Positions 4,201 through 63,725 of a stretch of 64,000 nucleotides of DNA are shown here, in pieces; the first letter of the stretch is position 1; the number at the start of each line of letters is the position of its first letter. The stretch lies in UHGV virus genome UHGV-0129253. The stretch is one strand, 5' to 3'. This DNA is from a virus. A model generated the notes under the pieces. The model was not told the origin of the DNA, did no database searches, and worked only from the letters and a program-made list of their open reading frames with translations. Both the position numbers and the translations under genes were made by a program.

Positions 4201-4590
4201 ATGGGCTTCCCTTCTCCTGCGGCGGATTATGCTGAGAGCCGTATTTCTCTTGATCAGCAGATAATTAGACATCCTTCAGCGACCTACTTCATGAGGGCAG
4301 CTGATAGTCATCATCGTGAGGGAATATTACAGGGTGCATTGCTGGTGGTCGATTCCTCACTTACCCCGGTTGATGGTTCTCTGCTTGTATGCGCTCTGGA
4401 TGGGGAATATCGCGTAAAAAGATACCGGAAGTACCCACGTCAGCATCTGGAGGATTTAAGAACCGGTAAGAAGGAAGCATTGCCAAAGGATGACGATGGA
4501 TGCACGGGCAGCAATGCCGTGTTTGGTGTGATCACTCACATTATCAACGACGCAAGAAGTGGCGAGTTTGATGATTGTCCTGTGATGTAG
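4201..4590 (+). CDS. UmuD'-like SOS mutagenesis protein (S24 LexA-like peptidase fold), HumD-like pre-processed form
   Basis: MGFPSPAADY...HPSATYF... begins at the UmuD Cys24-Gly25 cleavage position; LexA box upstream; no umuC partner in window. Confidence 0.75.
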   Translation: MGFPSPAADYAESRISLDQQIIRHPSATYFMRAADSHHREGILQGALLVVDSSLTPVDGSLLVCALDGEYRVKRYRKYPRQHLEDLRTGKKEALPKDDDGCTGSNAVFGVITHIINDARSGEFDDCPVM

Positions 4591-4627: not shown

Positions 4628-5728
4628 TCACACTGCGCGGAATGCGATTTCGCCAGGTATTACTTCACCTTGCCAATACATTTGGGCAGCAACGCGATCT
4701 GCGAGGTCACGATAAATAGCCGTAAATTCACTATCTGGACGACTAATAACGGTTGGTGTTCCGTTATCCAGATCTTCACGAAGAGAGATATGAAGTGGCA
4801 TTTGGCCTAACAACTGCGTGTTGTATTTCTCGGCCAGTTTCTGTGCGCCACCGGTGCCAAAAATTGGCTCGTGATGACCGCAGTTACTGCAAATATGCAC
4901 ACTCATGTTTTCGACGATACCCAGTACCGGCACTTCGACTTTTTCGAACATCACAATGCCTTTCTTCGCATCGATCAGCGCGATGTCTTGCGGCGTAGTT
5001 ACCACAACCGCACCAGTTACAGGAATGTTCTGCGCCAGCGTCAACTGAATATCACCAGTGCCCGGCGGCATATCGAGAACGAGATAGTCCAGATCAGGCC
5101 ATATAGTTTCCTGCAACATCTGCATCAGCGCCTTGCTGGCCATCGGTCCACGCCACACCATTGCATTGTCGTCGGTGACCAGATAACCAATAGAGTTGGT
5201 TGCCAGGCCATGAGACATGATAGGTGCCATGTGAGTACCGTCAGGTGAGGTTGGACGTTGGTTTTCCGCGCCCAGCATGGTTGGAATTGATGGACCATAG
5301 ATATCGGCATCCAAAATACCAACTTTCGCACCTTCAGCAGCCAACGCCAGTGCCAGGTTTACCGCCGTGGAGGATTTACCCACGCCGCCCTTGCCTGAGC
5401 TGACGGCGATAATGTTCTTAACGCCATTAATGCCTGGTTGGTTTTTGACGCGCTTAAGCGTGGCAATGTTGTACGACAGCTTCCAGTCAATAGCCTTTGC
5501 GCCAGTGATACGGAGCAGATCACCACTACATTGCTCTTTCAGGTCTTCAAAAGGCTTATTCCACACGAAAGGCATGATTAGTTCGACATGCAGTGTGTCA
5601 TCCATCAACGCAACATGGTGTAACGCTTTAAGCGTAGTCAGGTTGTGTTTCAGGGTTGGGTGCTGAAAATTAGCCAGCGTACCGGCTACCATTGCTCTCA
5701 GGGCATCCGGCGATTTGGACTCGCTCAT
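4628..5728 (-). CDS. mrp: Iron-sulfur cluster carrier ATPase Mrp/ApbC
   Basis: 366 aa, P-loop SSGKGGVGKS, near-full-length match to enterobacterial Mrp; divergent from metG as in E. coli. Confidence 0.9.
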   Translation of the reverse strand: MSESKSPDALRAMVAGTLANFQHPTLKHNLTTLKALHHVALMDDTLHVELIMPFVWNKPFEDLKEQCSGDLLRITGAKAIDWKLSYNIATLKRVKNQPGINGVKNIIAVSSGKGGVGKSSTAVNLALALAAEGAKVGILDADIYGPSIPTMLGAENQRPTSPDGTHMAPIMSHGLATNSIGYLVTDDNAMVWRGPMASKALMQMLQETIWPDLDYLVLDMPPGTGDIQLTLAQNIPVTGAVVVTTPQDIALIDAKKGIVMFEKVEVPVLGIVENMSVHICSNCGHHEPIFGTGGAQKLAEKYNTQLLGQMPLHISLREDLDNGTPTVISRPDSEFTAIYRDLADRVAAQMYWQGEVIPGEIAFRAV

Positions 5729-5885
5729 CCCGTCTCCTTTATTTTAATTTGCGCAATTGTCGCCTTGTAGTGTACTCCAGCTACGGCATTTAATCATTTA
5801 TGAGAAATGCTGTTATCACATGGCAGACATAAGGCCATTTTGTTACTATCAAGCCCCTTTTCACTACAAAGAAGTAATGCCTACT

Positions 5886-7919
5886 ATGACCCAAGTCGCG
5901 AAGAAAATTCTGGTGACGTGCGCGCTGCCGTACGCTAACGGCTCAATCCACCTCGGCCATATGCTGGAGCACATCCAGGCTGATGTCTGGGTTCGTTACC
6001 AGCGAATGCGCGGCCACGAGGTTAATTTCATCTGTGCCGACGATGCCCACGGTACGCCGATCATGCTGAAAGCGCAGCAGCTTGGTATCACACCGGAGCA
6101 GATGATTGGCGAAATGAGTCAGGAACACCAGACTGATTTCGCAGGCTTTAACATCAGCTATGACAACTATCACTCGACGCACAGCGAAGAGAACCGCCAG
6201 CTGTCTGAGCTTATCTATACTCGCCTGAAAGAGAACGGTTTTATTAAAAACCGCACTATCTCTCAGTTGTACGATCCGGAAAAAGGCATGTTCCTGCCGG
6301 ACCGTTTTGTAAAAGGCACCTGCCCGAAATGTAAAGCGCCAGATCAATACGGCGATAACTGTGAAGTCTGCGGCGCAACATATAGCCCGACTGAATTGAT
6401 CGAGCCGAAATCGGTGGTTTCTGGCGCTACCCCGGTAATGCGTGATTCTGAACACTTCTTCTTTGATCTACCCTCTTTCAGCGAAATGTTGCAGGCATGG
6501 ACCCGCAGCGGCGCGTTGCAGGAGCAGGTGGCGAACAAAATGCAGGAATGGTTTGAATCCGGCCTGCAACAGTGGGATATCTCCCGCGATGCGCCTTACT
6601 TCGGTTTTGAAATTCCGAACGCGCCGGGCAAATATTTCTACGTCTGGCTGGACGCGCCGATTGGCTACATGGGTTCCTTCAAGAATCTGTGCGACAAGCG
6701 CGGCGATACCACCAGCTTCGATGAATACTGGAAGAAAGACTCCACCGCCGAGCTGTACCACTTCATCGGTAAAGATATTGTTTACTTCCACAGCCTGTTC
6801 TGGCCTGCCATGCTGGAAGGCAGCAACTTCCGCAAGCCGACCAACCTGTTTGTTCACGGCTATGTGACGGTGAACGGCGCGAAGATGTCCAAGTCTCGCG
6901 GCACCTTTATTAAAGCCAGCACCTGGCTGAATCATTTTGACGCTGACAGCCTGCGTTACTACTACACTGCGAAACTCTCTTCGCGCATTGATGATATCGA
7001 TCTCAACCTGGAGGATTTCGTTCAGCGCGTGAATGCCGATATCGTGAACAAAGTGGTTAACCTGGCCTCTCGTAATGCAGGCTTTATCAACAAGCGTTTT
7101 GACGGCGTGCTGGCAGGCGAACTGGCTGACCCGCAACTGTACAAAACCTTTACTGATGCCGCTGAAGTGATTGGCGAAGCATGGGAAAGCCGCGAATTTG
7201 GTAAAGCTATCCGTGAAATCATGGCACTGGCTGACCTGGCTAACCGCTATGTCGATGAACAGGCTCCGTGGGTGGTGGCGAAGCAGGAAGGTCGCGATGC
7301 CGATCTGCAGGCGATTTGCTCTATGGGCATTAACCTGTTCCGCGTGCTGATGACTTACCTGAAACCGGTACTGCCGAAACTGACTGAACGTGCAGAAGCA
7401 TTCCTGAATACAGAACTGACCTGGGATGGTATCCAGCAACCGCTGCTGGGCCATAAAGTGAATCCGTTCAAGGCACTGTATAACCGTATCGATATGAAAC
7501 AGGTGGAAGCACTGGTGGAAGCATCCAAAGAAGAAGTGAAAGCCACAGCCGCACCGGTAACTGGCCCACTGGCTGACGACCCGATTCAGGAAACCATCAC
7601 CTTTGACGACTTCGCCAAAGTTGACCTGCGTGTGGCGCTGATTGAAAACGCGGAGTTTGTTGAAGGTTCTGACAAACTGTTGCGCCTGACGCTGGATCTC
7701 GGCGGTGAAAAACGCAATGTCTTCTCAGGCATCCGTTCTGCTTATCCAGACCCACAGGCACTGATTGGTCGTCACACCATTATGGTGGCTAACCTGGCTC
7801 CGCGTAAAATGCGCTTCGGTATCTCCGAAGGCATGGTGATGGCTGCTGGCCCCGGCGGGAAAGATATCTTCCTGTTAAGCCCGGATGTCGGTGCTAAACC
7901 TGGCCACCAGGTTAAGTAA
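5886..7919 (+). CDS. metG: Methionine--tRNA ligase
   Basis: 677 aa from ATG 5886 ([25 protein letters not shown]...); HIGH-type and KMSKS motifs; the ORF track's 5757 start is an upstream artefact. Confidence 0.95.
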
Positions 7920-13237: not shown

Positions 13238-13519
13238 ATGACTGATTTCACCATTACCCCTAAAGCACAAAATGTATTCCTTGAATCATGGCTGGACTTG
13301 CCGGAAACAGAACAGCAAGAAATGGATCATGTGGATTATGACGAGCAGGTAAGCACGCGATTCTTCCACTTTGAGGGATGCGTTTACGACATTGCCGACT
13401 TCATGCGAGATGACCGCTTCCCTGAATGGCACGCAAGCTATCCACTAAACGCCTTTGCCATGCTGATGATCCGTGTGGGTGATTCAGGGGATACCATCGA
13501 CATCGGTCTGCTCCACTAA
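13238..13519 (+). CDS. Hypothetical protein
   Basis: ATG 13238 with GTGAGGAT ~9 nt upstream. Confidence 0.45.
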   Translation: MTDFTITPKAQNVFLESWLDLPETEQQEMDHVDYDEQVSTRFFHFEGCVYDIADFMRDDRFPEWHASYPLNAFAMLMIRVGDSGDTIDIGLLH

Positions 13520-13564
13520 AGACTAAGGCCACCAATGCTGGTGGCCTTAAATGACCATCCTGTT

Positions 13565-13648
13565 TCCCGCAGGCTAAAAACACCAACCTCTTACCTCCAG
13601 GCAACCGACAAACCCACCTGTTCCCGTCCGGCTACCGCAACTTTCCAC
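13565..13648 (+). repeat. Direct repeats CAGGC(T/A)A..CGACAAACCCACCT (3 copies), second locus of the 9551 family
   Basis: Read directly. Confidence 0.4.
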
Positions 13649-13688
13649 TTTGACGCCTTATTCGTACAACGATAATTAACACCAACAA

Positions 13689-13703
13689 GAAAACAATTTG
13701 TTA
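13689..13703. promoter_or_regulatory. Early-type palindrome GAAAACAATTTGTTA after GATAAT
   Basis: ~20 nt upstream of ATG 13724. Confidence 0.35.
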
Positions 13704-13723
13704 TTTACGATAAGGAATTAATC

Positions 13724-14206
13724 ATGAATTTTATCGCTACTGTAAACGCACCCGCACATGGCAATATCGCTGTAACGTTCTCTGACATTGAAAAACGAGT
13801 ACTTGGTGCATGGCGCGACAATGAGACGGTAGAACTGTCAGCACAAGAAAAATGCATTATTGCACGCGACATCATTGGCAATCGTCGTTACTCGCGGGTA
13901 TTTGAGAAAGCGTATGTGGTAAATTCTGGGTTCGGAACGTTCGTCTTTCCGGTGCGCTCCGGGCGATTCTGCCAGTCCAAGCTGATTGAGTTCGCTACGC
14001 AGATTTCTGTCTGGATTAAAACTCAATCGTCGTTCAAATTTTCCGACGATGAAGCAGTATCGCAGGGGATGCGGATCGCCAACAATGCAATTAAATGCAA
14101 AAACATTACGTATACCGCTGGCGTTGACACATGGAAACTGTTTTGCGCTAACTTTATGCTGAATGTATACGCAAGCAACCGCATCCACATCCTTGATGGC
14201 GTGTAA
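13724..14206 (+). CDS. Hypothetical protein
   Basis: 160-aa ORF, AAGGA RBS. Confidence 0.55.
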   Translation: MNFIATVNAPAHGNIAVTFSDIEKRVLGAWRDNETVELSAQEKCIIARDIIGNRRYSRVFEKAYVVNSGFGTFVFPVRSGRFCQSKLIEFATQISVWIKTQSSFKFSDDEAVSQGMRIANNAIKCKNITYTAGVDTWKLFCANFMLNVYASNRIHILDGV

Positions 14207-14208
14207 CT

Positions 14209-14237
14209 GAGAAGAGGGCCAGAAACGGCCCTTTCTC
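14209..14237 (+). terminator. Long hairpin GAGAAGAGGGCC-AGAAAC-GGCCCTTTCTC after ORF 13724-14206
   Basis: ~11-bp stem; loop carries the iteron core GAAACGGCC. Confidence 0.4.
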
Positions 14238-14259
14238 TATAGCCACCAGCTGCCGCAGG

Positions 14260-14340
14260 GAAATTTTCAGAAACGGCGAGGAACGCATTCATGAGCCGAC
14301 GGGAAACGGCCAGGATTTTTTCGGGAAACGGCTGCATTCG
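14260..14340 (+). repeat. Second iteron array: 3 copies of (C)GGGAAACGGC
   Basis: Copies at 14268, 14300, 14322; same core as 10220-10360. Confidence 0.45.
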
Positions 14341-14742
14341 CCTTTATGTAGAAAAAAACATCGGGAAGCTGGTGGAATCCAACCAGCGGTTGTCGGACAG
14401 GCGAGCGGGGAAAATTATGATGACTTTCGTCGCCTGAGACATCCAGATTTCTTTCGTAGCGTAATCACATACGTGATTAAGTGGTGTGATTATGTGAAAA
14501 ATCACGCGCACATAATACGCGAGCGGATACGGAACAAAACAAAATGCCGATCCGCGCCGACAATTAAACGCGGATCATAAAGCAAGACTAAAAGCCAATG
14601 ATTAACCACACACCATAGCGCAATATAACGCGTTTTAAGCGCGTTAATGTGTTGAGTAATGGGTATGTACTGGTAAGGATATAAAAGCTCGTCTGTGGCG
14701 TTATTTTGGCGCTTATTTTATGTTGTTGGAGTGAGTCAAAGA

Positions 14743-14772
14743 CAATAAAAAACGCGCCATCATTGGCGCGTT
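14743..14772 (-). terminator. Minus-strand terminator (AACGCGCCATCATTGGCGCGTT, T-run on minus strand)
   Basis: Perfect 8-bp stem; A-run on plus strand. Confidence 0.55.
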
Positions 14773-14793
14773 ATGGTGGAAGTATTAGAAACG

Positions 14794-14816
14794 AAAAAAG
14801 CGCCCATAGTGGGCGC
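14794..14816 (-). terminator. Minus-strand terminator GCGCCCATAGTGGGCGC, copy 1
   Basis: Overlaps the stop of gene 14823-15053. Confidence 0.55.
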
Positions 14817-14822
14817 TTGATT

Positions 14823-15053
14823 TTATTTGTGCAAACTGATTTTAAATCCCATTTCTACAAACGCTTTTAGCATTAAAAATATATCAGCGTCATTCACGTC
14901 TGCTTTTTTCCGCTCCTGGTCGTTCAATAAGTCAATTTTTCGCGTTGTTTCATCGATAAACTCGACTGAGCGCCCAGCGTAACCAGCGATCCCAGCGATG
15001 CGATTAACAAAATAATCATTGCGCACGTTAACGCCAGCGATAAGAATAAACAT
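14823..15053 (-). CDS. Small hypothetical protein, paralog A (76 aa)
   Basis: Paralogous to 15096-15323; AAGGAG RBS. Confidence 0.55.
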   Translation of the reverse strand: MFILIAGVNVRNDYFVNRIAGIAGYAGRSVEFIDETTRKIDLLNDQERKKADVNDADIFLMLKAFVEMGFKISLHK

Positions 15054-15066
15054 GATTAAGCTCCTT

Positions 15067-15087
15067 AAAAGCGCCCATAGTGGGCGC
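15067..15087 (-). terminator. Intergenic hairpin GCGCCCATAGTGGGCGC, copy 2
   Basis: Identical stem-loop between the paralogs. Confidence 0.5.
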
Positions 15088-15095
15088 TATTGTTT

Positions 15096-15323
15096 TTATT
15101 TTTCTAAGTGAATATTAAAGCCAGCGTTTAAAAATTCTTGAAGCATTAAAGTTACATCAGCTTCATGTATTCCTGCGCGCGCTCTATGTTCTACGTCATT
15201 GATGTTTATTTTAAACGTTGTTTCGTCAACCACTTCAGAACTTAGAGCATACCCAGCTAAACCAGCAATATCATAAACAAGAGTATGATTGTTGATATTT
15301 ACGCCAGAGATGAAAATAACCAT
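15096..15323 (-). CDS. Small hypothetical protein, paralog B (75 aa)
   Basis: Tandem duplicate of 14823-15053. Confidence 0.55.
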   Translation of the reverse strand: MVIFISGVNINNHTLVYDIAGLAGYALSSEVVDETTFKININDVEHRARAGIHEADVTLMLQEFLNAGFNIHLEK

Positions 15324-15337
15324 GATTAAGCTCCTTT

Positions 15338-15357
15338 AAAGCGCCCATAGTGGGCGC
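15338..15357 (-). terminator. Intergenic hairpin GCGCCCATAGTGGGCGC, copy 3
   Basis: Identical stem-loop. Confidence 0.5.
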
Positions 15358-15370
15358 AAGATTCCATTAA

Positions 15371-16021
15371 TTACGCTTTAAAAGCATCAGCCAGATAGTT
15401 ATAGAAATCATTTTTAACGAAGCGATATTGCTGAGTGCCAGCTTTCGCGCTCCCAGCTCCTTTGACTTTTTCAACAAGTCCGAGACGTTCGCAAAGATTG
15501 ATCAACTGGTTGGCTTGAGTATAGCCAGCGTCCAATTTAATCTCGCACGCTTTTTTGGCTTCATTCATTAAATCGAAAACAGCGCCATTCGTGAACGTGT
15601 CGATCTCGTCGTTAATCATATCGATTAAAGCGAATACACGAGATCCAGACATATCAGCGACGGAATAAGTGCATTTGCCAGATTTAATTGATTTAACCAG
15701 ATAAACCAGTTTTTCCAGAGAATAACTATTAGTCATTGCATCACGGAAAAAAACTTCTGGCGTTTGTTTGCTTGCTTTGATCGCATAGTAGAAAACAGAG
15801 CACAATTTTTCGTCTTCTACAGCGTTTACAACGTTGTTGATGAAGTAAGCAAGTTTAGTGGTTGCAGCTTGCATATTTGCTTTGTCTGCTTTTGTGTGCG
15901 TACCATTTTTATAATGTTCGTTATATGTTTGAGTTGCCAGATCTGCTTTTTCGCGCAGCTCGTCGGATACAATGGCAGCAGCTTCAACGATGGATTTTTT
16001 AGAAATGATAATGTTAGCCAT
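15371..16021 (-). CDS. Hypothetical protein (216 aa)
   Basis: ORF with AT-rich promoter region upstream (16022-16300). Confidence 0.55.
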   Translation of the reverse strand: MANIIISKKSIVEAAAIVSDELREKADLATQTYNEHYKNGTHTKADKANMQAATTKLAYFINNVVNAVEDEKLCSVFYYAIKASKQTPEVFFRDAMTNSYSLEKLVYLVKSIKSGKCTYSVADMSGSRVFALIDMINDEIDTFTNGAVFDLMNEAKKACEIKLDAGYTQANQLINLCERLGLVEKVKGAGSAKAGTQQYRFVKNDFYNYLADAFKA

Positions 16022-16260
16022 GATAATTTTTCCTTATGTAAATTTAAAATTTATTGTCGTTAGCGTCTTCGCTTTCGACGAGTTCAATTATCGATATGCG
16101 AAAAAAGATTGCAAGTGTTTTTTTAAAATTTTTTGCAGGGATGAAAGTCCTAGAAATAAAAGCGAGATCGTCGAAGGTGTTCCCTAAATAAATAATCGAT
16201 TCCGGCTTTCGACCTTATATATTTAGGTTATTTGATTTGTAGATATAAAGAAGTGATGTG

Positions 16261-16290
16261 AAAAATAATAACCGGACTTAGCCGGTTATT
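16261..16290 (-). terminator. Minus-strand terminator (ATAACCGGACTTAGCCGGTTAT + T-run)
   Basis: 8-bp stem plus T-run on minus strand. Confidence 0.6.
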
Positions 16291-16302
16291 AACCTTATAG
16301 AT

Positions 16303-16611
16303 TTATTGAACAGACTCTACAGCCTTACGATTGGTGTCAAATAGCGCATCAACGAACTGTGCCGATGACTCGCTAGATTCGCAATCCAACATTGCCCGTT
16401 CTTCATTTGCCACTTTCTTACACAGTTCCACACTCTCACCTATCGCTTTTCCTGCTTTTACGGCTGCCGAAAATTGATACATACAAACTGATACATTCTG
16501 AGACGTTGAGCACACGTCATTCATCAGCGACTGAATGACAGGCTTATAGTCCATTGCATTTGCCGCAACTGAGCAAAGTAAAAATAATGGTGGTAACAAT
16601 ATCGATTTCAT
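16303..16611 (-). CDS. Secreted Cys-rich small protein (signal peptide, 6 Cys)
   Basis: N-terminal MKSILLPPLFLLCSVAANA hydrophobic leader. Confidence 0.55.
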   Translation of the reverse strand: MKSILLPPLFLLCSVAANAMDYKPVIQSLMNDVCSTSQNVSVCMYQFSAAVKAGKAIGESVELCKKVANEERAMLDCESSESSAQFVDALFDTNRKAVESVQ

Positions 16612-16614
16612 AAC

Positions 16615-17139
16615 TCAAAAAGGCAAAATTCGTTCAACCCAATCGAACAAAACAACTATTTTTCTACCGTTCTCGACACGTAGTGTAACCTGACAAGCAT
16701 CTGCGCCTGCTGACACCCCCTCAATTTCACGGCCATCCGCCATGTACACCCTTATAGATTTGTTTGCTTTGTAGGCTTGGTTGCAAATTGCAAAAAAATC
16801 GCGGCGTGATGGCCGATTATCGACATAATCAGGGTGAACTGTTAGTCGACCTTTGAAATCGTGAGCGATACTGTCAACCACACCTGATTCAATTGTACTA
16901 ATGCGTTCAAGTGGGAGCCTTATACGATTTTCTTTGTCAAAAGGGGCTGGGCAAAGGTCAACTTTGTTACGAGATGGCATGAGGCCATAAACGTACATGC
17001 AAAACGCCTGGCCATCTTCGAGAGTGACCCTTACAGGAATTTGTTCTCTGCGCCAGAACATCAGTAGTTTTTCAACGTTAGTGTAATCTCGCGGCCAGAG
17101 TTCAGCTTGGATACCGTAGGTAATATCTTTGGTTGTCAT
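16615..17139 (-). CDS. Hypothetical protein; start uncertain (alternative ATG at 17217 would overlap the upstream gene by 74 nt)
   Basis: ORF 16615-17217; internal ATG at 17139 lies 4 nt after the lipoprotein stop. Confidence 0.4.
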   Translation of the reverse strand: MTTKDITYGIQAELWPRDYTNVEKLLMFWRREQIPVRVTLEDGQAFCMYVYGLMPSRNKVDLCPAPFDKENRIRLPLERISTIESGVVDSIAHDFKGRLTVHPDYVDNRPSRRDFFAICNQAYKANKSIRVYMADGREIEGVSAGADACQVTLRVENGRKIVVLFDWVERILPF

Positions 17140-17143
17140 GTCA

Positions 17144-17566
17144 TCACAGAGTTGTTGGCAGAATGTCGATGTCACCAGAATTGCTGGTGAACACCCTGAA
17201 CGCTTTTGTGTCTCCATTCTTCAGAGTCGTTTCTCGCTCTTGACGAGCGGGGTTTAGAGCACATAAACCTGCACCTTCAAGAGATGCACCCACAATTAAT
17301 TCTCCGGCATTTAAATGGAAAGTCGCTTTTTCGCCTGTAGCCAGTTTTGCGACAGTTTCGCCATTGATGAAAATGGAAGCATCACATCCAGCTCCTACAA
17401 AACCTGCGTCTCTCATTACCACCAACGTAGCTGGCGCTGCGCTTTGATACTTGAACACTTTGGCCTGCGGTGCTGGTTTGGCGTCATGGATTGATATTGG
17501 ACGTGATTGGCACGCGGTAAGCATCAACACTGGTAACGTTAGTAGAGGGAGAAGCGAGTATTTCAT
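17144..17566 (-). CDS. Putative lipoprotein (lipobox LTAC); candidate superinfection-exclusion factor
   Basis: MKYSLLPLLTLPVLMLTAC signal/lipobox read directly. Confidence 0.5.
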   Translation of the reverse strand: MKYSLLPLLTLPVLMLTACQSRPISIHDAKPAPQAKVFKYQSAAPATLVVMRDAGFVGAGCDASIFINGETVAKLATGEKATFHLNAGELIVGASLEGAGLCALNPARQERETTLKNGDTKAFRVFTSNSGDIDILPTTL

Positions 17567-17634
17567 GTTAGTTTTAGAACAGAAAGTGAACAGTATGGGA
17601 GACTTCATCTTTGTCTCCCTAATTGATAGCGTGA

Positions 17635-17913
17635 TTATTTTAATCTGCTTAATAGCGTTTCGAGATCTTCCTTTGTCATATTAGAGTTCTCATAGATACG
17701 CATGATTTTCTCACGAGTCTTAGCGGAAGCCCCGACAGAAGATATAACCTTGTCAAAGTCGGCCATTGTCAATTGTTCCAGAATGGTATTTATGACTTCA
17801 GCCTTAGACATTTTGATATTTTTTTCTTTTAGTTTCACTTGAAACTTTCCAAGTTTGTCATTGGCCTTATCAGACAATGCTACCTGACAGTAAGTTGTTT
17901 TCTTTTCACTCAT
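17635..17913 (-). CDS. Hypothetical protein (92 aa)
   Basis: ORF immediately downstream of the helicase. Confidence 0.5.
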   Translation of the reverse strand: MSEKKTTYCQVALSDKANDKLGKFQVKLKEKNIKMSKAEVINTILEQLTMADFDKVISSVGASAKTREKIMRIYENSNMTKEDLETLLSRLK

Positions 17914-17915
17914 AA

Positions 17916-19475
17916 CTAATCTCGTTTCAGAACTCCAAAATCGAATGCTCCATCAATAGGCAATACACCTTCTGCAAAGCCAGGTGTGGTGTCGATGATG
18001 TGTTTTCGCTCATAAGAGTGAGACAACAGGTATTTGTTGCTAATGTCAATGAAATCAGTGATAAAACACACGTTTGCCTGATTTTTTTTGGCTCGTAAGC
18101 CACGACCGACACGCTGTCTCATTTCAACTTCTGCTTTCCCACCACCAGCAAGAATGACCGCACCAACGCTTGGCACATCAACACCAACATCCAGAATAGT
18201 CGAGCCTATTAAAACATCTATTTCACCAGACGCTAAACTATTCAGCTTTGCTTGCCTTGTCGTCTGGTTAGATTCCCCATAGATGAAATCAACTTTAAGA
18301 CCTGACTCCTTCATCATCTCCATCAGGATTTGCCCGTGGCGTTTAAGACGAACCAGAGTCATGCAGTTGAGTGAATGTTGCTTATAAAGCAATGCCTCGC
18401 GCACTATGGCCTCGTTACGTCCCAAATTATACACGATCCCCAACTGATAAGCCTTTTGGTAGGCGGTGCTCATACCAACTCTAAAATTGAGGTGTTTGTT
18501 GGCAAGTTCGGCCTTGATTCTGGTCTCGTCTGGCTTGTAGGCAACTTTATGATAAAGGAAGTACGGCTTTGCCAGAATGCCTCGATCAATCAGGTACTTT
18601 TCTGTGACTTTAATTTCAATTCGCCCGGCCACCGCCATCAGGCGCATGTTGGCTTCCGTCGAATCCTTCATGAACGGCGTGGCTGTAAGCGCCAGACGAT
18701 AGTCTGCGTTCACACATAATCTGGCGATGTCATAGAAATTTGAGCCTGAAGACTCATGCGCCTCTTCCAGAATAAGAAGAGAGACACTTGAAAGGAAGCG
18801 TTTCACCAACTCCCGACGTTTGAGGTGGTAGCTTTTCTTATCTGGTGTTGCATCGCGTGGTGGTTCTTCGAGGAAACTTGCAAGAGTTTGAACTGTAGCG
18901 ACGTTGATATGTCGTGATACCTGGAACTCACCCGAGCCAATGACTCCAACCTTTTGGTCTTTTAACCACGGTTCGCCATTTTCGGCGCGGTAGTCGATGG
19001 ATCTCTGGAAGTTTTCGGCCATTTGAAACATCAGAACAGAGCGGGTTGTTAAAAATAATGTCATTCGACCGATACGTGCAGCTGCTTTGCAGGCAACGTT
19101 AGATTTCCCGCCACCAGTAGCGATCTGCGCAATCATCATTCCCTCTCGAACCAGTGTTTCCACAGTCTGATCCTGATACGCATAATCAGGATTGTATGGG
19201 AATGGGTTAACCGCCGGATTTGGTTTACCAAGCGCCGGGGCTTTGTCTTTGCGGATATGAACACATTTGATGCCCGCCTTGTTCAAGTTCGCCGCTACAG
19301 GCTTGGCAAAGCCAGCAGGGAACGAGTTTTTACTCCAGTTGAACATCGTGCTTGTGCCCTTCCAGTCGCCAGTCTCGACTTCGTAGCTCAACATTTGCTG
19401 CACCAGTTGCTTTACCTTGTCATCTGCGCCAGAAATAAGCGCATTTACTGCGTTAGATACAATCCGAACAGTCAT
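17916..19475 (-). CDS. SF2 DEAD/DEAH-box helicase
   Basis: Motif I ATGGGKS, motif II ILEEAH, motif III LTATP, motif VI QRVGRGLR. Confidence 0.8.
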   Translation of the reverse strand: MTVRIVSNAVNALISGADDKVKQLVQQMLSYEVETGDWKGTSTMFNWSKNSFPAGFAKPVAANLNKAGIKCVHIRKDKAPALGKPNPAVNPFPYNPDYAYQDQTVETLVREGMMIAQIATGGGKSNVACKAAARIGRMTLFLTTRSVLMFQMAENFQRSIDYRAENGEPWLKDQKVGVIGSGEFQVSRHINVATVQTLASFLEEPPRDATPDKKSYHLKRRELVKRFLSSVSLLILEEAHESSGSNFYDIARLCVNADYRLALTATPFMKDSTEANMRLMAVAGRIEIKVTEKYLIDRGILAKPYFLYHKVAYKPDETRIKAELANKHLNFRVGMSTAYQKAYQLGIVYNLGRNEAIVREALLYKQHSLNCMTLVRLKRHGQILMEMMKESGLKVDFIYGESNQTTRQAKLNSLASGEIDVLIGSTILDVGVDVPSVGAVILAGGGKAEVEMRQRVGRGLRAKKNQANVCFITDFIDISNKYLLSHSYERKHIIDTTPGFAEGVLPIDGAFDFGVLKRD

Positions 19476-19520
19476 AAACCTCTTTCCTTAGTGCCTTTTG
19501 TATGTTATTTGGCTATTATA

Positions 19521-19540
19521 ATAAGTAAGTGATTACTTAG
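19521..19540. promoter_or_regulatory. Late-type motif ATAAGTAAGTGATTACTTAG in divergent promoter region
   Basis: First member of the (G)ATA(A/G)GTAAGTA...TACTTA family. Confidence 0.4.
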
Positions 19541-19557
19541 TGGATTGTAGCAATAAA

Positions 19558-20238
19558 ATGGATGTAAAAATCACGATTTTGCAGGTTGATGTTGCCAACC
19601 TTCGCCCGAATACCTGGAACACCAATTCGGTTGGTGCGCAGAATTTTGAAAAACTGAAAGGTTCTATCGAAAAATTGGGCTTTTTTAAGCCAATTTTGGC
19701 TCGTGAACTTGAAGATGGATTTTTTGAAATCCTCGGCGGTGAACATCGCTGGCGTGCTGCTATTGAGCAAGGAATTTCAACGGTTCCGGTGCTTTCTGTG
19801 GGCAAAATTAGCGATGTCGTAGCTAAACAGATGTCACTGGTGGACAACGAGCGATACGGTGAAGACGACCAAATCGCATTGCAACGCTTCATTGAAGAAA
19901 TTCAGTCAGAACTTGACTATCAACTGTCTGAAATCGCCCCGTATGACGACGAAATCTCGATGGTTTTAGCAAAAGAGGCGGCAATCGACCTTGAAGCACT
20001 GGAGGCATTGTCTCGTGGTAGTGATGAGCCTGTCGATACCGACAAACGAGAGAAAACCGAACGTGTGGGTGCGGAACATCAGACCATGCGCTTCAAAGTA
20101 ACTTTCGATGCGTCAGATCGTGTTGCAGAAACCATAAAAAACATCATCAAAGAGCAGGCTATTAACACCGGTAATGAAATGGAGAACGCTGGTGAGGCTC
20201 TGGTGTGGCTGGTCGACTACTACAAGGAGCGTATGTAA
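19558..20238 (+). CDS. ParB/Srx-fold (ParB N-terminal domain) protein 1
   Basis: GxxRxxA motif (EILGGEHRWRAA); start ATG 19558 (track gives GTG 19540). Confidence 0.6.
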   Translation: MDVKITILQVDVANLRPNTWNTNSVGAQNFEKLKGSIEKLGFFKPILARELEDGFFEILGGEHRWRAAIEQGISTVPVLSVGKISDVVAKQMSLVDNERYGEDDQIALQRFIEEIQSELDYQLSEIAPYDDEISMVLAKEAAIDLEALEALSRGSDEPVDTDKREKTERVGAEHQTMRFKVTFDASDRVAETIKNIIKEQAINTGNEMENAGEALVWLVDYYKERM

Positions 20239-52287: not shown

Positions 52288-52539
52288 ATGCTAGGCAGCC
52301 TGATGACAAAGCTAAAAGTTGCTTTGATTACGCTGGCTGCCGTTCTTTTCGTTCTTGTCGGCGCTTACACGATGGGCGGGAATGCGGCGCGACGAGCAAT
52401 GGAAGAGAAGGCAAAACAGGAAGACAGAAAACGACTTCAAAACACAGTGAAAGTGGTGAATGAGACGAACAGTGAAATACGTCAGAAAGATGCTTCTGCC
52501 ATTCATCGTGAGCTGCATGATAAGTGGATGCGTCATTAA
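52288..52539 (+). CDS. i-spanin (Rz-like): N-terminal TM plus charged coiled coil
   Basis: MLGSLMTKLKVALITLAAVLFVLVGAY then EEKAKQEDRKRLQ. Confidence 0.55.
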   Translation: MLGSLMTKLKVALITLAAVLFVLVGAYTMGGNAARRAMEEKAKQEDRKRLQNTVKVVNETNSEIRQKDASAIHRELHDKWMRH

Positions 52540-52675
52540 GCCACAAACCACTAGCGTGTTGTTCTGCGATGGCGCTGAACCTATTTATATCAGCAATGAC
52601 GATGTAATGACCGAAGAAACCGAACGCCAAATCCTTTTTCACAATACGATGGGAGAGAGAGTTTGCGGTTGGTGA
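52490..52675 (+). CDS. o-spanin (Rz1-like) lipoprotein, +1 frame overlapping the i-spanin 3' end
   Basis: Signal MLLPFIVSCMISGC with lipobox ISGC; overlaps 52490-52539. Confidence 0.55.
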   Translation: MLLPFIVSCMISGCVIKPQTTSVLFCDGAEPIYISNDDVMTEETERQILFHNTMGERVCGW

Positions 52676-52707
52676 TGTCGAAGTTCCCCTCAAATGAGGG
52701 GGACACA

Positions 52708-53229
52708 TTATTCTTCGAACAATTTTTCGATAGATTTTGTTGGATAGAACAAAGAACGATCGTTGTTACCAACCAGCTGGATAAAGCCCAAACTTTTATA
52801 AAACGCCCTGGCTTTATCGTTCAACGCCTCAACGAAAAGCCCATGAATGCCTACCGCAAGAGATGCATTGTACACAACACGCATTGCGTGAGTTACAAGC
52901 ATTGAGCCAAGCCCCTGACCTTGAAGAGATTTGTCCAAAGCCAGTCTGCCTAAAGTGATACTTGGGACATTCCGATAAGGCACTTTCTTTTGCTGACTCT
53001 TTGAAGGTAAGGTTTCTTTCTCAAAGCAGCTGCCTGACAAAGTGTAATAACCTAATACCTTTGGTATTTCTTCTTTAGTGCAAAGCACATAAGCGCGAAG
53101 AATTTTTCCTTCATGCTGTCTTTTTAAGTGGTTGGTCAAAAATGCGTTTAGTGACTCTTCGCCGCAATCAAAACCGTTTAGATCATAATCGTTCTCTCCA
53201 GAGAAAATCTCGATCGTCGTATTGCTCAC
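52708..53229 (-). CDS. GNAT-family toxin (TacT/AtaT/KacT-like type II TA toxin)
   Basis: 173 aa GNAT; paired with upstream DUF1778-type antitoxin. Confidence 0.75.
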   Translation of the reverse strand: MSNTTIEIFSGENDYDLNGFDCGEESLNAFLTNHLKRQHEGKILRAYVLCTKEEIPKVLGYYTLSGSCFEKETLPSKSQQKKVPYRNVPSITLGRLALDKSLQGQGLGSMLVTHAMRVVYNASLAVGIHGLFVEALNDKARAFYKSLGFIQLVGNNDRSLFYPTKSIEKLFEE

Positions 53230-54905: not shown

Positions 54906-55673
54906 TTATGCCGCGCTAACACTATGTTCAGTCCTAACCACCCCAACCTTCACAAAAGGGCTACCGTAGCTTGGTGGCTTCTTGATTAATTTGCCTACAT
55001 ACAGTTTTCTAATATGCTCATCGGCTATTCTGCCAACAAATTCATAACGTTTTGTGTCGGGGCCAAGAGCTATATCCCTTGTAAAGTACTGCTGAGAACC
55101 GGCTTTGACCCAGCATTCAATCTGATAAACTTCCATTATTAGCCCACCATATGTAGCGTAGGCATATTTGAGATTCTCGTCTCTTGGAACCTTTGCCCAT
55201 ACGCCACGCGTAGCTTCATATAATGCCAGAGCGGACATTCCTGACTTGTAGGTGCTGTTTAGCAGGAAGGCAAGACCGGCGTGCTCAGGAGCAATTTCAG
55301 TTTCCTCTTGCAGCACTAAGTGATGGTAGGCGTCCAGTGATATTCTGCCCATCATGGAACCACTTCCTCGTACCTTATTCGTAAGCTCTCCGACCCCCAT
55401 AAGGTCGATGCATGTCGCCTCAACAAGTTTGGCTGTGGTTTCATCCATACCATGACGAAGAATATCTATGCCTAATTTTTTATTAGCCAAAAGTTCTTTG
55501 ATCCGCATGGATTTGGGAGAGTCATCGGGATACTTGATGTGATCGAGACAACGAGTCGATTTGCCTTTTCCTATGTAAAACGGTCTTTTCATCTTGTCTT
55601 CTGTATCATAGAGGCAGTAAACATAGTATTTAGCCTTATCCAATGATCTCGCGTATACCGATAAATCGTCCAT
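54906..55673 (-). CDS. GIY-YIG nuclease-domain protein
   Basis: N-terminal YYVYCLYD...RPFYIGKGKSTR motif; 255 aa. Confidence 0.6.
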   Translation of the reverse strand: MDDLSVYARSLDKAKYYVYCLYDTEDKMKRPFYIGKGKSTRCLDHIKYPDDSPKSMRIKELLANKKLGIDILRHGMDETTAKLVEATCIDLMGVGELTNKVRGSGSMMGRISLDAYHHLVLQEETEIAPEHAGLAFLLNSTYKSGMSALALYEATRGVWAKVPRDENLKYAYATYGGLIMEVYQIECWVKAGSQQYFTRDIALGPDTKRYEFVGRIADEHIRKLYVGKLIKKPPSYGSPFVKVGVVRTEHSVSAA

Positions 55674-63478: not shown

Positions 63479-63553
63479 GATGGTGTAGCTCAGCGGTAGA
63501 GCAGTTGGCTGTTAACCAACTGGTCGGTGGTTCGAATCCACCCACCATCGCCA
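63479..63553 (+). tRNA. tRNA-Asn (anticodon GUU)
   Basis: Hand-folded cloverleaf: acceptor GATGGTG/CACCATC, D-stem GCTC/GAGC, anticodon loop CTGTTAA, T-arm GGTGG-TTCGAAT-CCACC, encoded CCA; unlike the enterobacterial tRNA-Asn as I recall it. Confidence 0.8.
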
Positions 63554-63558
63554 ATTTA

Positions 63559-63645
63559 GGGGAGTTAGTCCGTAGGGGCAGCGGGGTAGACTGTAAATCT
63601 ACTGTCATTGCGACTCGGGTGGTTCGACTCCATCACTCCCCACCA
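63559..63645 (+). tRNA. tRNA-Tyr (anticodon GUA), type II with long variable arm; D-arm non-canonical
   Basis: Acceptor GGGGAGT/ACTCCCC, anticodon arm GTAGA-CTGTAAA-TCTAC, variable-arm hairpin GTC-ATTGC-GAC, T-arm GGTGG-TTCGACT-CCATC, encoded CCA. Confidence 0.6.
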
Positions 63646-63649
63646 AATT

Positions 63650-63725
63650 GCCGGTTTAGCTCAGTTGGTAGAGCGCCTGCCTTGTAAGCAGGATGTCAGC
63701 GGTTCGATCCCGTTAACCGGCACCA
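63650..63725 (+). tRNA. tRNA-Thr (anticodon UGU)
   Basis: Acceptor GCCGGTT/AACCGGC, D-stem GCTC/GAGC, anticodon arm CCTGC-CTTGTAA-GCAGG, T-loop TTCGATC, encoded CCA. Confidence 0.8.

Follow-up and report, generated by a model that had tools for sequence, protein, structure and literature searches.

The DNA analyzed here, a stretch of 64,000 nucleotides (nt) from the virus genome UHGV-0129253 (the window, at its full length), carries on its minus strand, between positions 14823 and 19475, a compact block of eight genes. On balance, this block is best read as a conserved backbone module of phage-plasmids of the SSU5/pHCM2/pMT1 type, with its genes in two transcription units on the minus strand and with slots for variable cargo. 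The original prediction for this region had taken the block for an accessory cassette, in which a DExH-type helicase of superfamily 2 (SF2) and two small paralogous genes could form a defense unit and two envelope-targeted proteins would act in superinfection exclusion. All eight open reading frames (ORFs) were found where they had been placed, and each of them matches a PHROG family with an expect value (E) of 1e-38 or better.

Judged by DNA identity, the window is that of an Escherichia coli phage-plasmid of the SSU5/pHCM2/pMT1 type. The region shares 95-98% DNA identity with the E. coli SSU5-type phages and plasmids CMS-2020a, Cyrano, and PhiR41_1 and 79% with Salmonella phage SSU5; for CMS-2020a, the value is 97.9% DNA identity over 96% of positions 14000-20000. 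The SSU5 supergroup of phage-plasmids also includes pHCM2 of Salmonella Typhi and pMT1 of Yersinia pestis (PMC7969092). The presence and identity of the block genes were assessed by tblastn in ten related elements, namely Cyrano, PhiR41_1, SSU5, pMT1, pHCM2, AnCo3, plasmid p3 of enterotoxigenic E. coli (ETEC), and three Klebsiella plasmids, and plasmid counts were taken from PLSDB.

The block consists of two transcription units rather than one, with a terminator and a promoter-like site between them (Table 1). Unit 1 comprises, in this order, the genes for the helicase, a small protein of the core (p92), a lipoprotein, a FljA-like protein, and a secreted protein; its intergenic gaps measure 2, 27, 5, and 4 nt in gene order, and no internal terminator lies within it. 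Unit 2 runs from the p216 gene through a hairpin, par75, a second hairpin, and par76 to a double terminator. Moreover, the block, originally described as the only large counter-oriented one, is the largest stretch of minus-strand coding DNA in the window but not the only one, since three further stretches (apbC at 4628-5728, 52328-53229, and 54906-55673) were found.

Table 1. Features of the minus-strand block and its flanking non-coding sequences (positions in the window).
Feature	Position	Strand	Characteristics
Divergent control region, helicase/ParB-like operon (82 nt)	19476-19557	minus	TATAAT at 19515-19520; inverted repeat; 5' untranslated region (5'UTR) AAGGCACTAAGGAAAGAGG
Predicted SF2 helicase, XPB/UvsW-like, 519 amino acids (aa)	17916-19475	minus	ResIII, DEAD, Helicase_C; phrog_16
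p92, core small protein	17635-17913	minus	phrog_1466
Lipoprotein, variable slot A	17144-17608	minus	phrog_890 'lipoprotein', E=1.8e-51
FljA-family protein, 174 aa	16615-17139	minus	PF03614; orphan homolog of 'repressor of phase-1 flagellin'
Secreted protein (sec102), variable slot B, 102 aa	16303-16611	minus	phrog_9536
Intrinsic terminator, end of unit 1	16266-16291	minus	-12.6 kcal/mol, z = -4.3; pairing kept in 11 elements
Invariant non-coding blocks	16144-16222	minus	ATATATAAGG, TATTTATTTAGGGAACACCTTCGA, TTTATTTCTAGGACTTT; 11-element alignment
Promoter-like site, unit 2	16087-16114	minus	TTGCAA-16-GATAAT; -35 CTTG and -10 TCGATAAT invariant in 11 elements
p216, core protein	15371-16021	minus	N-terminal long helical hairpin, C-terminal winged helix-turn-helix
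Hairpin copy 1	15341-15357	minus	followed by UUUAAAGGAG, the par75 ribosome-binding site
par75, pMT1/pHCM2-type allele, 75 aa	15096-15323	minus	phrog_1585; 83-84% identity to the pMT1 and pHCM2 copies
Hairpin copy 2	15071-15087	minus	followed by UUUUAAGGAG, the par76 ribosome-binding site
par76, Cyrano-type allele, 76 aa	14823-15053	minus	phrog_1585; 96% identity to the Cyrano copy
Hairpin copy 3 with U-run (14798-14818) and second terminator (14751-14772); end of unit 2	14751-14818	minus	conserved in 7 elements

Four genes constitute the core of the module. The helicase, p92, FljA-like, and p216 genes occur in the same order in all ten SSU5-type elements, with protein identities of 72-99%, 35-100%, 36-100%, and 48-98%, respectively, an arrangement that contradicts the initial idea of an accessory cassette. 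The ratio of nonsynonymous to synonymous substitution rates (dN/dS) of these four genes against their relatives amounts to 0.01-0.14 (0.01-0.05 for the helicase), and they are therefore real genes under purifying selection and not chance ORFs. PLSDB contains 1002 plasmids with the helicase and 835 with the FljA-like gene, and the two counts are almost equal in Klebsiella (346 and 345 plasmids, respectively), Escherichia (228 and 229), Enterobacter (92 and 92), and Yersinia (62 and 62). SSU5, pHCM2, pMT1, Cyrano, and CMS-2020a share gene order and orientation with the module of the window, which differs from them in carrying a pMT1-type and a Cyrano-type small gene in tandem, the contents of the slots also being variable, and the p92 and FljA-like proteins of ETEC plasmid 3 are identical to those of the window. 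A degraded copy of the module was also observed in the E. coli chromosome CP125919.1 (383-399 kilobases, kb), with the helicase in three fragments, p216 in two, an intact FljA-like gene (52% identical), and a par76-type gene.

The first gene of unit 1 encodes a predicted SF2 helicase. Its ResIII, DEAD, and Helicase_C domains all score above the Pfam cut-offs, it matches phrog_16 ('DNA helicase') with E=2.5e-93, and motifs I (TGGGKS), II (LEEAHE), III (TATP), and VI (QRVGRGLR) can be read from its translation. The SF2 core assigned at the outset is thus confirmed, but not the strict DExH type, since motif II is EEAH, a variant with Glu in place of Asp. The best solved relatives in the PDB are the archaeal XPBII (1.7e-12), Rad25, and T4 UvsW (2e-8), and Cyrano annotates its own copy as 'UvsW helicase'. 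The window protein resembles XPB/Rad25 and T4 UvsW in its ResIII/DEAD and Helicase_C cores and differs from them in motif II, in an N-terminal region of about 95 residues, and in its equivalog scores: NCBIfam provided no equivalog, since no score exceeded 60 bits and the cut-offs are 329-995, which speaks against orthology to XPB, UvsW, RecG, or RadD.

The helicase is preceded by a short control region that it shares with a divergent ParB-like operon. A perfect inverted repeat, TAAGTAA-N4-TTACTTA (19522-19539), abuts the -10 element TATAAT, and no -35 element is recognizable. This region, including the 5'UTR AAGGCACTAAGGAAAGAGG, is nearly invariant in 11 elements, among them the distant KpPF25, and its sequence suggests that it acts as a promoter. 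The junction itself extends beyond the Enterobacterales. In the Acinetobacter baumannii plasmid NZ_CP074697.1, a helicase 42% identical to that of the window is found together with a gene of about 97 aa opposite the ParB, ParB/Srx, and ABC-ATPase genes, and this plasmid has no FljA-like gene, p216, or par75/par76 paralogs. Altogether, 153 Acinetobacter plasmids in PLSDB carry the helicase, and none of them appears among the FljA-like hits. The original prediction had named clear homology of the helicase to a core replication or recombination enzyme, with conserved synteny in lytic relatives, as the outcome that would speak against its accessory reading. The synteny is indeed conserved, and because the junction recurs in Acinetobacter the result comes close to that outcome, but the relatives are temperate phage-plasmids instead of lytic phages and homology to a specific core enzyme was not found.

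The same distribution lends some plausibility to an alternative, which we regard as possible but do not favor, in which the helicase and p92 form one ancient system with the divergent ParB/Srx-ParB/Srx-ABC-ATPase operon, devoted for instance to segregation or to DNA processing or modification, and p216, the small genes, and the FljA-like gene joined it later, without being related to it and only in the SSU5-type elements of enterobacteria. The conservation of the junction from Acinetobacter to SSU5-type elements, the absence of the latter genes from the Acinetobacter plasmid examined, and the near invariance of the shared control region are what such a history would leave. However, the enterobacterial elements have the FljA-like gene in one tightly spaced operon with the helicase (gaps of 2-27 nt, no internal terminator), and it accompanies the helicase nearly one to one.

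p92 starts 2 nt past the helicase stop codon and shows a strand-helix-helix pattern in its sequence. The Acinetobacter protein encoded at the corresponding position matches RHH_4 below threshold (E=0.025), and an hhalign comparison of both small proteins was not significant. From these sequence hints, the N-terminus of p92 is possibly a ribbon-helix-helix domain, a weak inference.

The fourth gene of unit 1 was left without identity in the original prediction, which gave only a length of 175-200 aa, and turned out to encode a member of the FljA family. Its ORF spans 16615-17217 and the true start is the ATG at 17139, 5 nt past the lipoprotein stop codon. The protein matches Flag1_repress (PF03614) over the complete model (positions 1-170 of 170) with E=2.5e-84 and 281.7 bits against a cut-off of 24, and the SSU5 copy is annotated as 'putative repressor of phase 1 flagellin'. 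For comparison, a flagellin tblastn of plasmids provided flagellin-linked fljA genes; those of a linear plasmid of Salmonella Senftenberg and an E. coli IncF plasmid, which both sit 80-90 nt downstream of a flagellin gene, encode proteins 35% and 36% identical to the window protein over about 170 aa. The latter thus shares with FljA (from the Salmonella fljBA operon and the fljA genes of E. coli and pBSSB1) the full-length family match, at a size of 174 aa, and the conserved motifs DITYG-AE-WPRDY, RDFF-IC, ACQV, and FDWV-RI. In contrast with those genes, it is located in a helicase operon of a phage-plasmid, downstream of the helicase, p92, and lipoprotein genes and not co-transcribed with an alternative flagellin of the fljB type, and genes of its kind are near-universal in the SSU5 supergroup, including its Klebsiella and Y. 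pestis elements.

The predicted structure of the FljA-like protein consists of two tandem Hfq-like Sm domains, and in the model an N-terminal helix leads into a strongly bent beta-sheet of five strands, as is characteristic of the Sm/Hfq fold. The likeness to Hfq and bacterial Sm-like chaperones rests on this predicted fold, the sequence identity to Hfq being about 19%, and the window protein would contain two Sm domains per chain, whereas Hfq has one and forms a homohexamer. Sequence and profile searches of the PDB gave nothing usable for this protein, and when its alignment was used to search genome contigs, all additional matches were copies on phage-plasmids and chromosomal fljA was not recovered.

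FljA is known to act at the post-transcriptional level, by binding the leader of the fliC mRNA and preventing its translation, and the FljA of plasmid pBSSB1 represses fliC in this post-transcriptional manner, a derivative of this plasmid turning motile E. coli non-motile (PMC2652032). By analogy, the FljA-like protein of the window most likely represses the translation of one specific mRNA. Flagellin may not be its sole target, because the gene co-occurs nearly one to one with the helicase in Enterobacterales plasmids, including 345 from Klebsiella and 62 from Yersinia. Its retention in Klebsiella and Y. pestis plasmids suggests a target on the element itself or another host mRNA. Klebsiella and Y. 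pestis hosts are not known to make flagella.

A second alternative, which we consider rather unlikely, gives flagellin the central role: the FljA-like protein would bind the fliC mRNA of the host and block its translation, so that carriers would be non-flagellated by lysogenic conversion, and the envelope proteins would add a surface remodeling that excludes flagellotropic or other phages and lowers flagellin-based immune detection. The collinearity with functional FljA over the full length, the repression of fliC and the loss of motility reported for pBSSB1 and its derivative, and the position of the gene between two envelope-protein genes would agree with it. Likewise, E. coli carriers have fliC, as in strain 503440, which holds fliC together with the plasmid FljA-like gene. 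The latter occurs in 243 of 5426 complete E. coli genomes (about 4.5%). Against the flagellin reading stand the identity of only 35-36% to flagellin-linked FljA, the fact that the window contains no flagellin gene as a partner, and the persistence of the FljA-like gene, intact and under purifying selection, in the Klebsiella and Yersinia plasmids counted above, whose hosts are not known to be flagellated. Moreover, pHCM2 has been described as cryptic and its host S. Typhi CT18 is of the H:d type, which would also be at odds with flagellin silencing.

Two positions within unit 1 differ from the core in being variable, and in the window both are occupied by genes for exported proteins. Firstly, slot A holds a lipoprotein that may start at 17608 (154 aa, with AGGGAGA upstream) or at 17569 (140 aa, a start conserved in SSU5, pMT1, and pHCM2). 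From either start, the signal peptide MKYSLLPLLTLPVLMLTA|CQ has the same ending (LPVLMLTA|C), in agreement with the lipobox LTAC that had been read before, and position +2 is Gln; the lipoprotein is predicted to be sorted to the outer membrane. A weak, sub-threshold match to DUF2846 is the sole hint of a family. The lipoprotein is present in five of the ten relatives (55-99% identity), and its homologs are almost confined to contigs of about 105-115 kb. In other elements, slot A is taken by a different lipoprotein, either of 266 aa (LLLTGC, encoded on the opposite strand) or of 145 aa (LVAGC), by secreted proteins of 117-118 aa, or by proteins without recognizable domains. Secondly, slot B holds a secreted protein with a signal peptide of the AXA type, MKSILLPPLFLLCSVAANA|MDYK (ending in SVAANA|MDYK), and an acidic mature form of 83 aa. 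The export signal attributed to it was correct, the six Cys residues were not, since the protein has five, of which four lie in the mature part. It is likewise present in five of the ten relatives, four times at full length and once partially, with 65-99% identity. Because these positions hold varying lipoproteins and secreted proteins across elements, they are, as judged from the sequences, real cargo positions with a bias toward envelope proteins, the rest of the module being backbone.

In their sequences, the two envelope-protein genes look like moron-type genes of lysogenic conversion or exclusion. The lipoprotein resembles T5 Llp and phi80/N15 Cor in its small size, its encoding by a phage, and its classical lipobox, and it occupies a variable position, but no sequence-family relation to them is detectable. 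Neither the lipoprotein nor the secreted protein matches any named exclusion protein in Pfam, PHROG, or PADLOC. Judged by sequence, the export signals and the variability of both proteins agree with the exclusion role initially proposed for them.

Between both units lies non-coding DNA with several conserved blocks. Along the 290 nt from the unit 1 terminator to p216, the blocks TCTATAAGG, ATATATAAGG, TATTTATTTAGGNAACACCTTC, and TTTATTTCTARGAC are invariant even in the most distant element, as are the promoter hexamers and the Shine-Dalgarno region of p216. The blocks in 16144-16302 are invariant in 11 elements although the flanking proteins are only 36-48% identical. In addition, a 545-nt span of the coding strand in this part contains three of the four TATAAGGK sites of the window. 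RNAalifold applied to the conserved region upstream of p216 gave no structure besides the terminator, and a search of positions 13500-20000 against Rfam gave nothing near any gathering score. These blocks are candidates for an array of operators or RNA sites, which could be bound by p216 as DNA or by the FljA-like protein as RNA.

In unit 2, p216 is followed by a hairpin, GCGCCCACTATGGGCGC, which occurs in three copies with 270/271-nt spacing, after p216, par75, and par76, and has a folding energy of -13 to -15 kcal/mol. Copies 1 and 2 are each followed by UUU(U)AAGGAG, and a U-run (T-run in the DNA) follows only copy 3. Accordingly, the conserved stem-loop originally described after each paralog is real, but it exists in three copies, the first of which follows p216, and it has the T-run of a terminator at the third alone. 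In PhiR41_1 (about 4290-4310) and pHCM2 (about 6810-6830), the loop of the hairpin after p216 is flipped, GCGCCCATAGTGGGCGC replacing GCGCCCACTATGGGCGC, with inversion of the entire palindrome. The gap between unit 2 and the convergent gene (14207-14822) comprises 600 nt of non-coding DNA with additional GC-rich hairpins at 14548-14577 and 14505-14521, beside the unit 2 terminators.

The two small genes are paralogous, as had been proposed: par75 and par76 are 48% identical and both belong to phrog_1585, a family whose one named member comes from a Pseudomonas phage. The paralog family is small and accounts for 41 clusters, formed at 50% identity, in a set of 1.8 billion proteins. Across elements, the position after p216 is occupied by a gene of the par75 type, one of the par76 type, an unrelated 67-aa gene, or two of these, and the tandem of par75 and par76 is present in six of 375 matching plasmids. 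The 67-aa gene, found in SSU5 and others, was considered as a further paralog of par75/par76 and ruled out at 16-21% identity.

For the helicase and the paralogs as a defense unit, PADLOC run on the eight proteins gave only generic SF2 matches of the helicase (PbeA, type IV REase, DruE, and the like), marginal matches for p92 (E > 0.005), and none for the other six, and NCBIfam contained no equivalog for any of the eight. It is thus quite improbable that the whole block is an accessory defense, anti-defense, or exclusion cassette, with the helicase and the paralogs as the defense unit and the envelope proteins blocking receptors: the genuine export signals of the lipoprotein and the secreted protein and their variation between elements, the variation of the phrog_1585 genes in allele and copy number (down to the rare tandem state) within a small family named only from a Pseudomonas phage, and the weak matches of the helicase to PbeA and the Dnd restriction helicase would fit it, but the helicase is universal and syntenic in the relatives, with 90-99% identity between genera, its PADLOC and NCBIfam scores lie far under the family cut-offs and reflect generic SF2 motifs, no further component of any known defense system was detected by PADLOC, and the envelope proteins match no named exclusion protein.

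Several observations weigh against the reading of the block as a conserved backbone module with the functions assigned here. When the window is compared with Cyrano, the synonymous divergence (dS) amounts to 0.10 in the helicase and 0.26 in p216, as against 1.1 in p92 and 1.4 in the FljA-like gene. In a pair of Klebsiella plasmids, dS is 0.08 for the helicase and saturated for the FljA-like gene. Since the dS of p92 and the FljA-like gene is far above that of the helicase, the segment from p92 to the FljA-like gene is, in terms of these sequences, swapped as alleles between similar backbones, and would consist of exchangeable alleles rather than fixed backbone. Specificity determinants are often exchanged as alleles in this way. 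Furthermore, p92 has no match in the PDB or Pfam, the N-terminal 95 residues or so of the helicase were assigned no family or fold in domain searches, par75 and par76 have none in sequence and profile searches of Pfam and the PDB, and the fold match of p216 is to a generic winged helix only; a BFVD fold search with p216 returned nothing below E=0.01. No flagellin gene exists in the 64-kb window, and sequences resembling the fliC leader (5'UTR) are limited to chance-level 9-12-mers. The small paralogs and the envelope proteins could also be anti-defense or defense genes. Finally, nothing linking SSU5-type elements or pHCM2 with FljA or flagellin was found in accessible papers.

From the homologies, folds, and conservation described above, we infer the biochemical roles and the expression timing of the module, which would serve in regulation and DNA processing and offer slots for morons, as follows. 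Unit 1 would start at the near-invariant control region common with the divergent ParB/Srx-ABC-ATPase operon, and the helicase would remodel or unwind the DNA of the element itself in replication or recombination. p92 is a possible ribbon-helix-helix autoregulator. The FljA-like protein would bind mRNA in a sequence-specific way and repress its translation, in the manner of FljA with fliC, and its target could be the flagellin mRNA of the host in motile hosts or an mRNA encoded by the element or elsewhere in the host. Unit 2, under its own conserved putative promoter, would provide the winged-helix p216 as a DNA-binding protein together with one or two phrog_1585 proteins whose genes are separated by hairpins. 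In turn, the lipoprotein and the secreted protein with four Cys residues would be exchangeable morons inserted between core genes and acting at the cell envelope of the lysogen, where superinfection exclusion or surface modification is their most plausible role.

Other features of the window and its relatives were also observed. In positions 4628-7919, the minus-strand gene apbC/mrp (366 aa) diverges from metG, which encodes a complete methionyl-tRNA synthetase (720 aa), and the GC content is 0.52 against about 0.46 around the pair. This apbC/metG cargo, located beside an S24 peptidase gene, is found with at least 95% identity in about 200 plasmids, mostly from E. coli, and has the same arrangement as in the E. 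coli chromosome. Upstream in the window, 1717-2523 encodes an Ead/Ea22-like and DUF551 protein of the type found in lambdoid early regions, and three tRNA genes (Asn-GTT, Tyr-GTA, and Thr-TGT) lie on the plus strand at 63479-63725. Near-identical copies of enterobacterial phage-plasmid genes also appear in records labeled as a Bacillota metagenome-assembled genome, Candidatus Fimivivens, Gemella, and Finegoldia, and most likely represent binning or contamination errors.

Hundreds of sequences of the module already exist, with partial annotation. Its partition into core and slots, the near one-to-one linkage of the FljA-like gene with the helicase, the predicted tandem-Hfq fold, and the invariant non-coding blocks were not found in the accessible literature. 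It may be tentatively proposed that the FljA-like protein represents a second branch of the FljA family, an orphan tandem-Sm repressor near-universal in enterobacterial SSU5-type phage-plasmids, which would primarily act on an mRNA encoded by the element, for example as a switch of life cycle or copy number, possibly through the adjacent UAUAAGG blocks; in that case, the repressor of flagellin in Salmonella phase variation would be a relative that became domesticated. Alternatively, the complete E. coli genomes counted above would carry a plasmid-borne flagellin silencer affecting motility and the H-antigen.

SSU5-type phage-plasmids are common in clinical Enterobacterales, and both pHCM2 of S. 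Typhi and pMT1 of Y. pestis carry the FljA-like gene. Telling the invariant genes (helicase, p92, FljA-like, and p216) apart from the envelope cargo provides a short list of candidate regulators for this family. Should flagellin be silenced by the FljA-like protein, cells that carry these elements would differ in motility, H-serotype expression, immune recognition of flagellin, and sensitivity to flagellotropic phages. Should the protein regulate the element instead, it would be a gene-specific translational repressor with an Hfq fold involved in the control of a phage life cycle. The envelope slots, in turn, constitute a natural hunting ground for new exclusion proteins.

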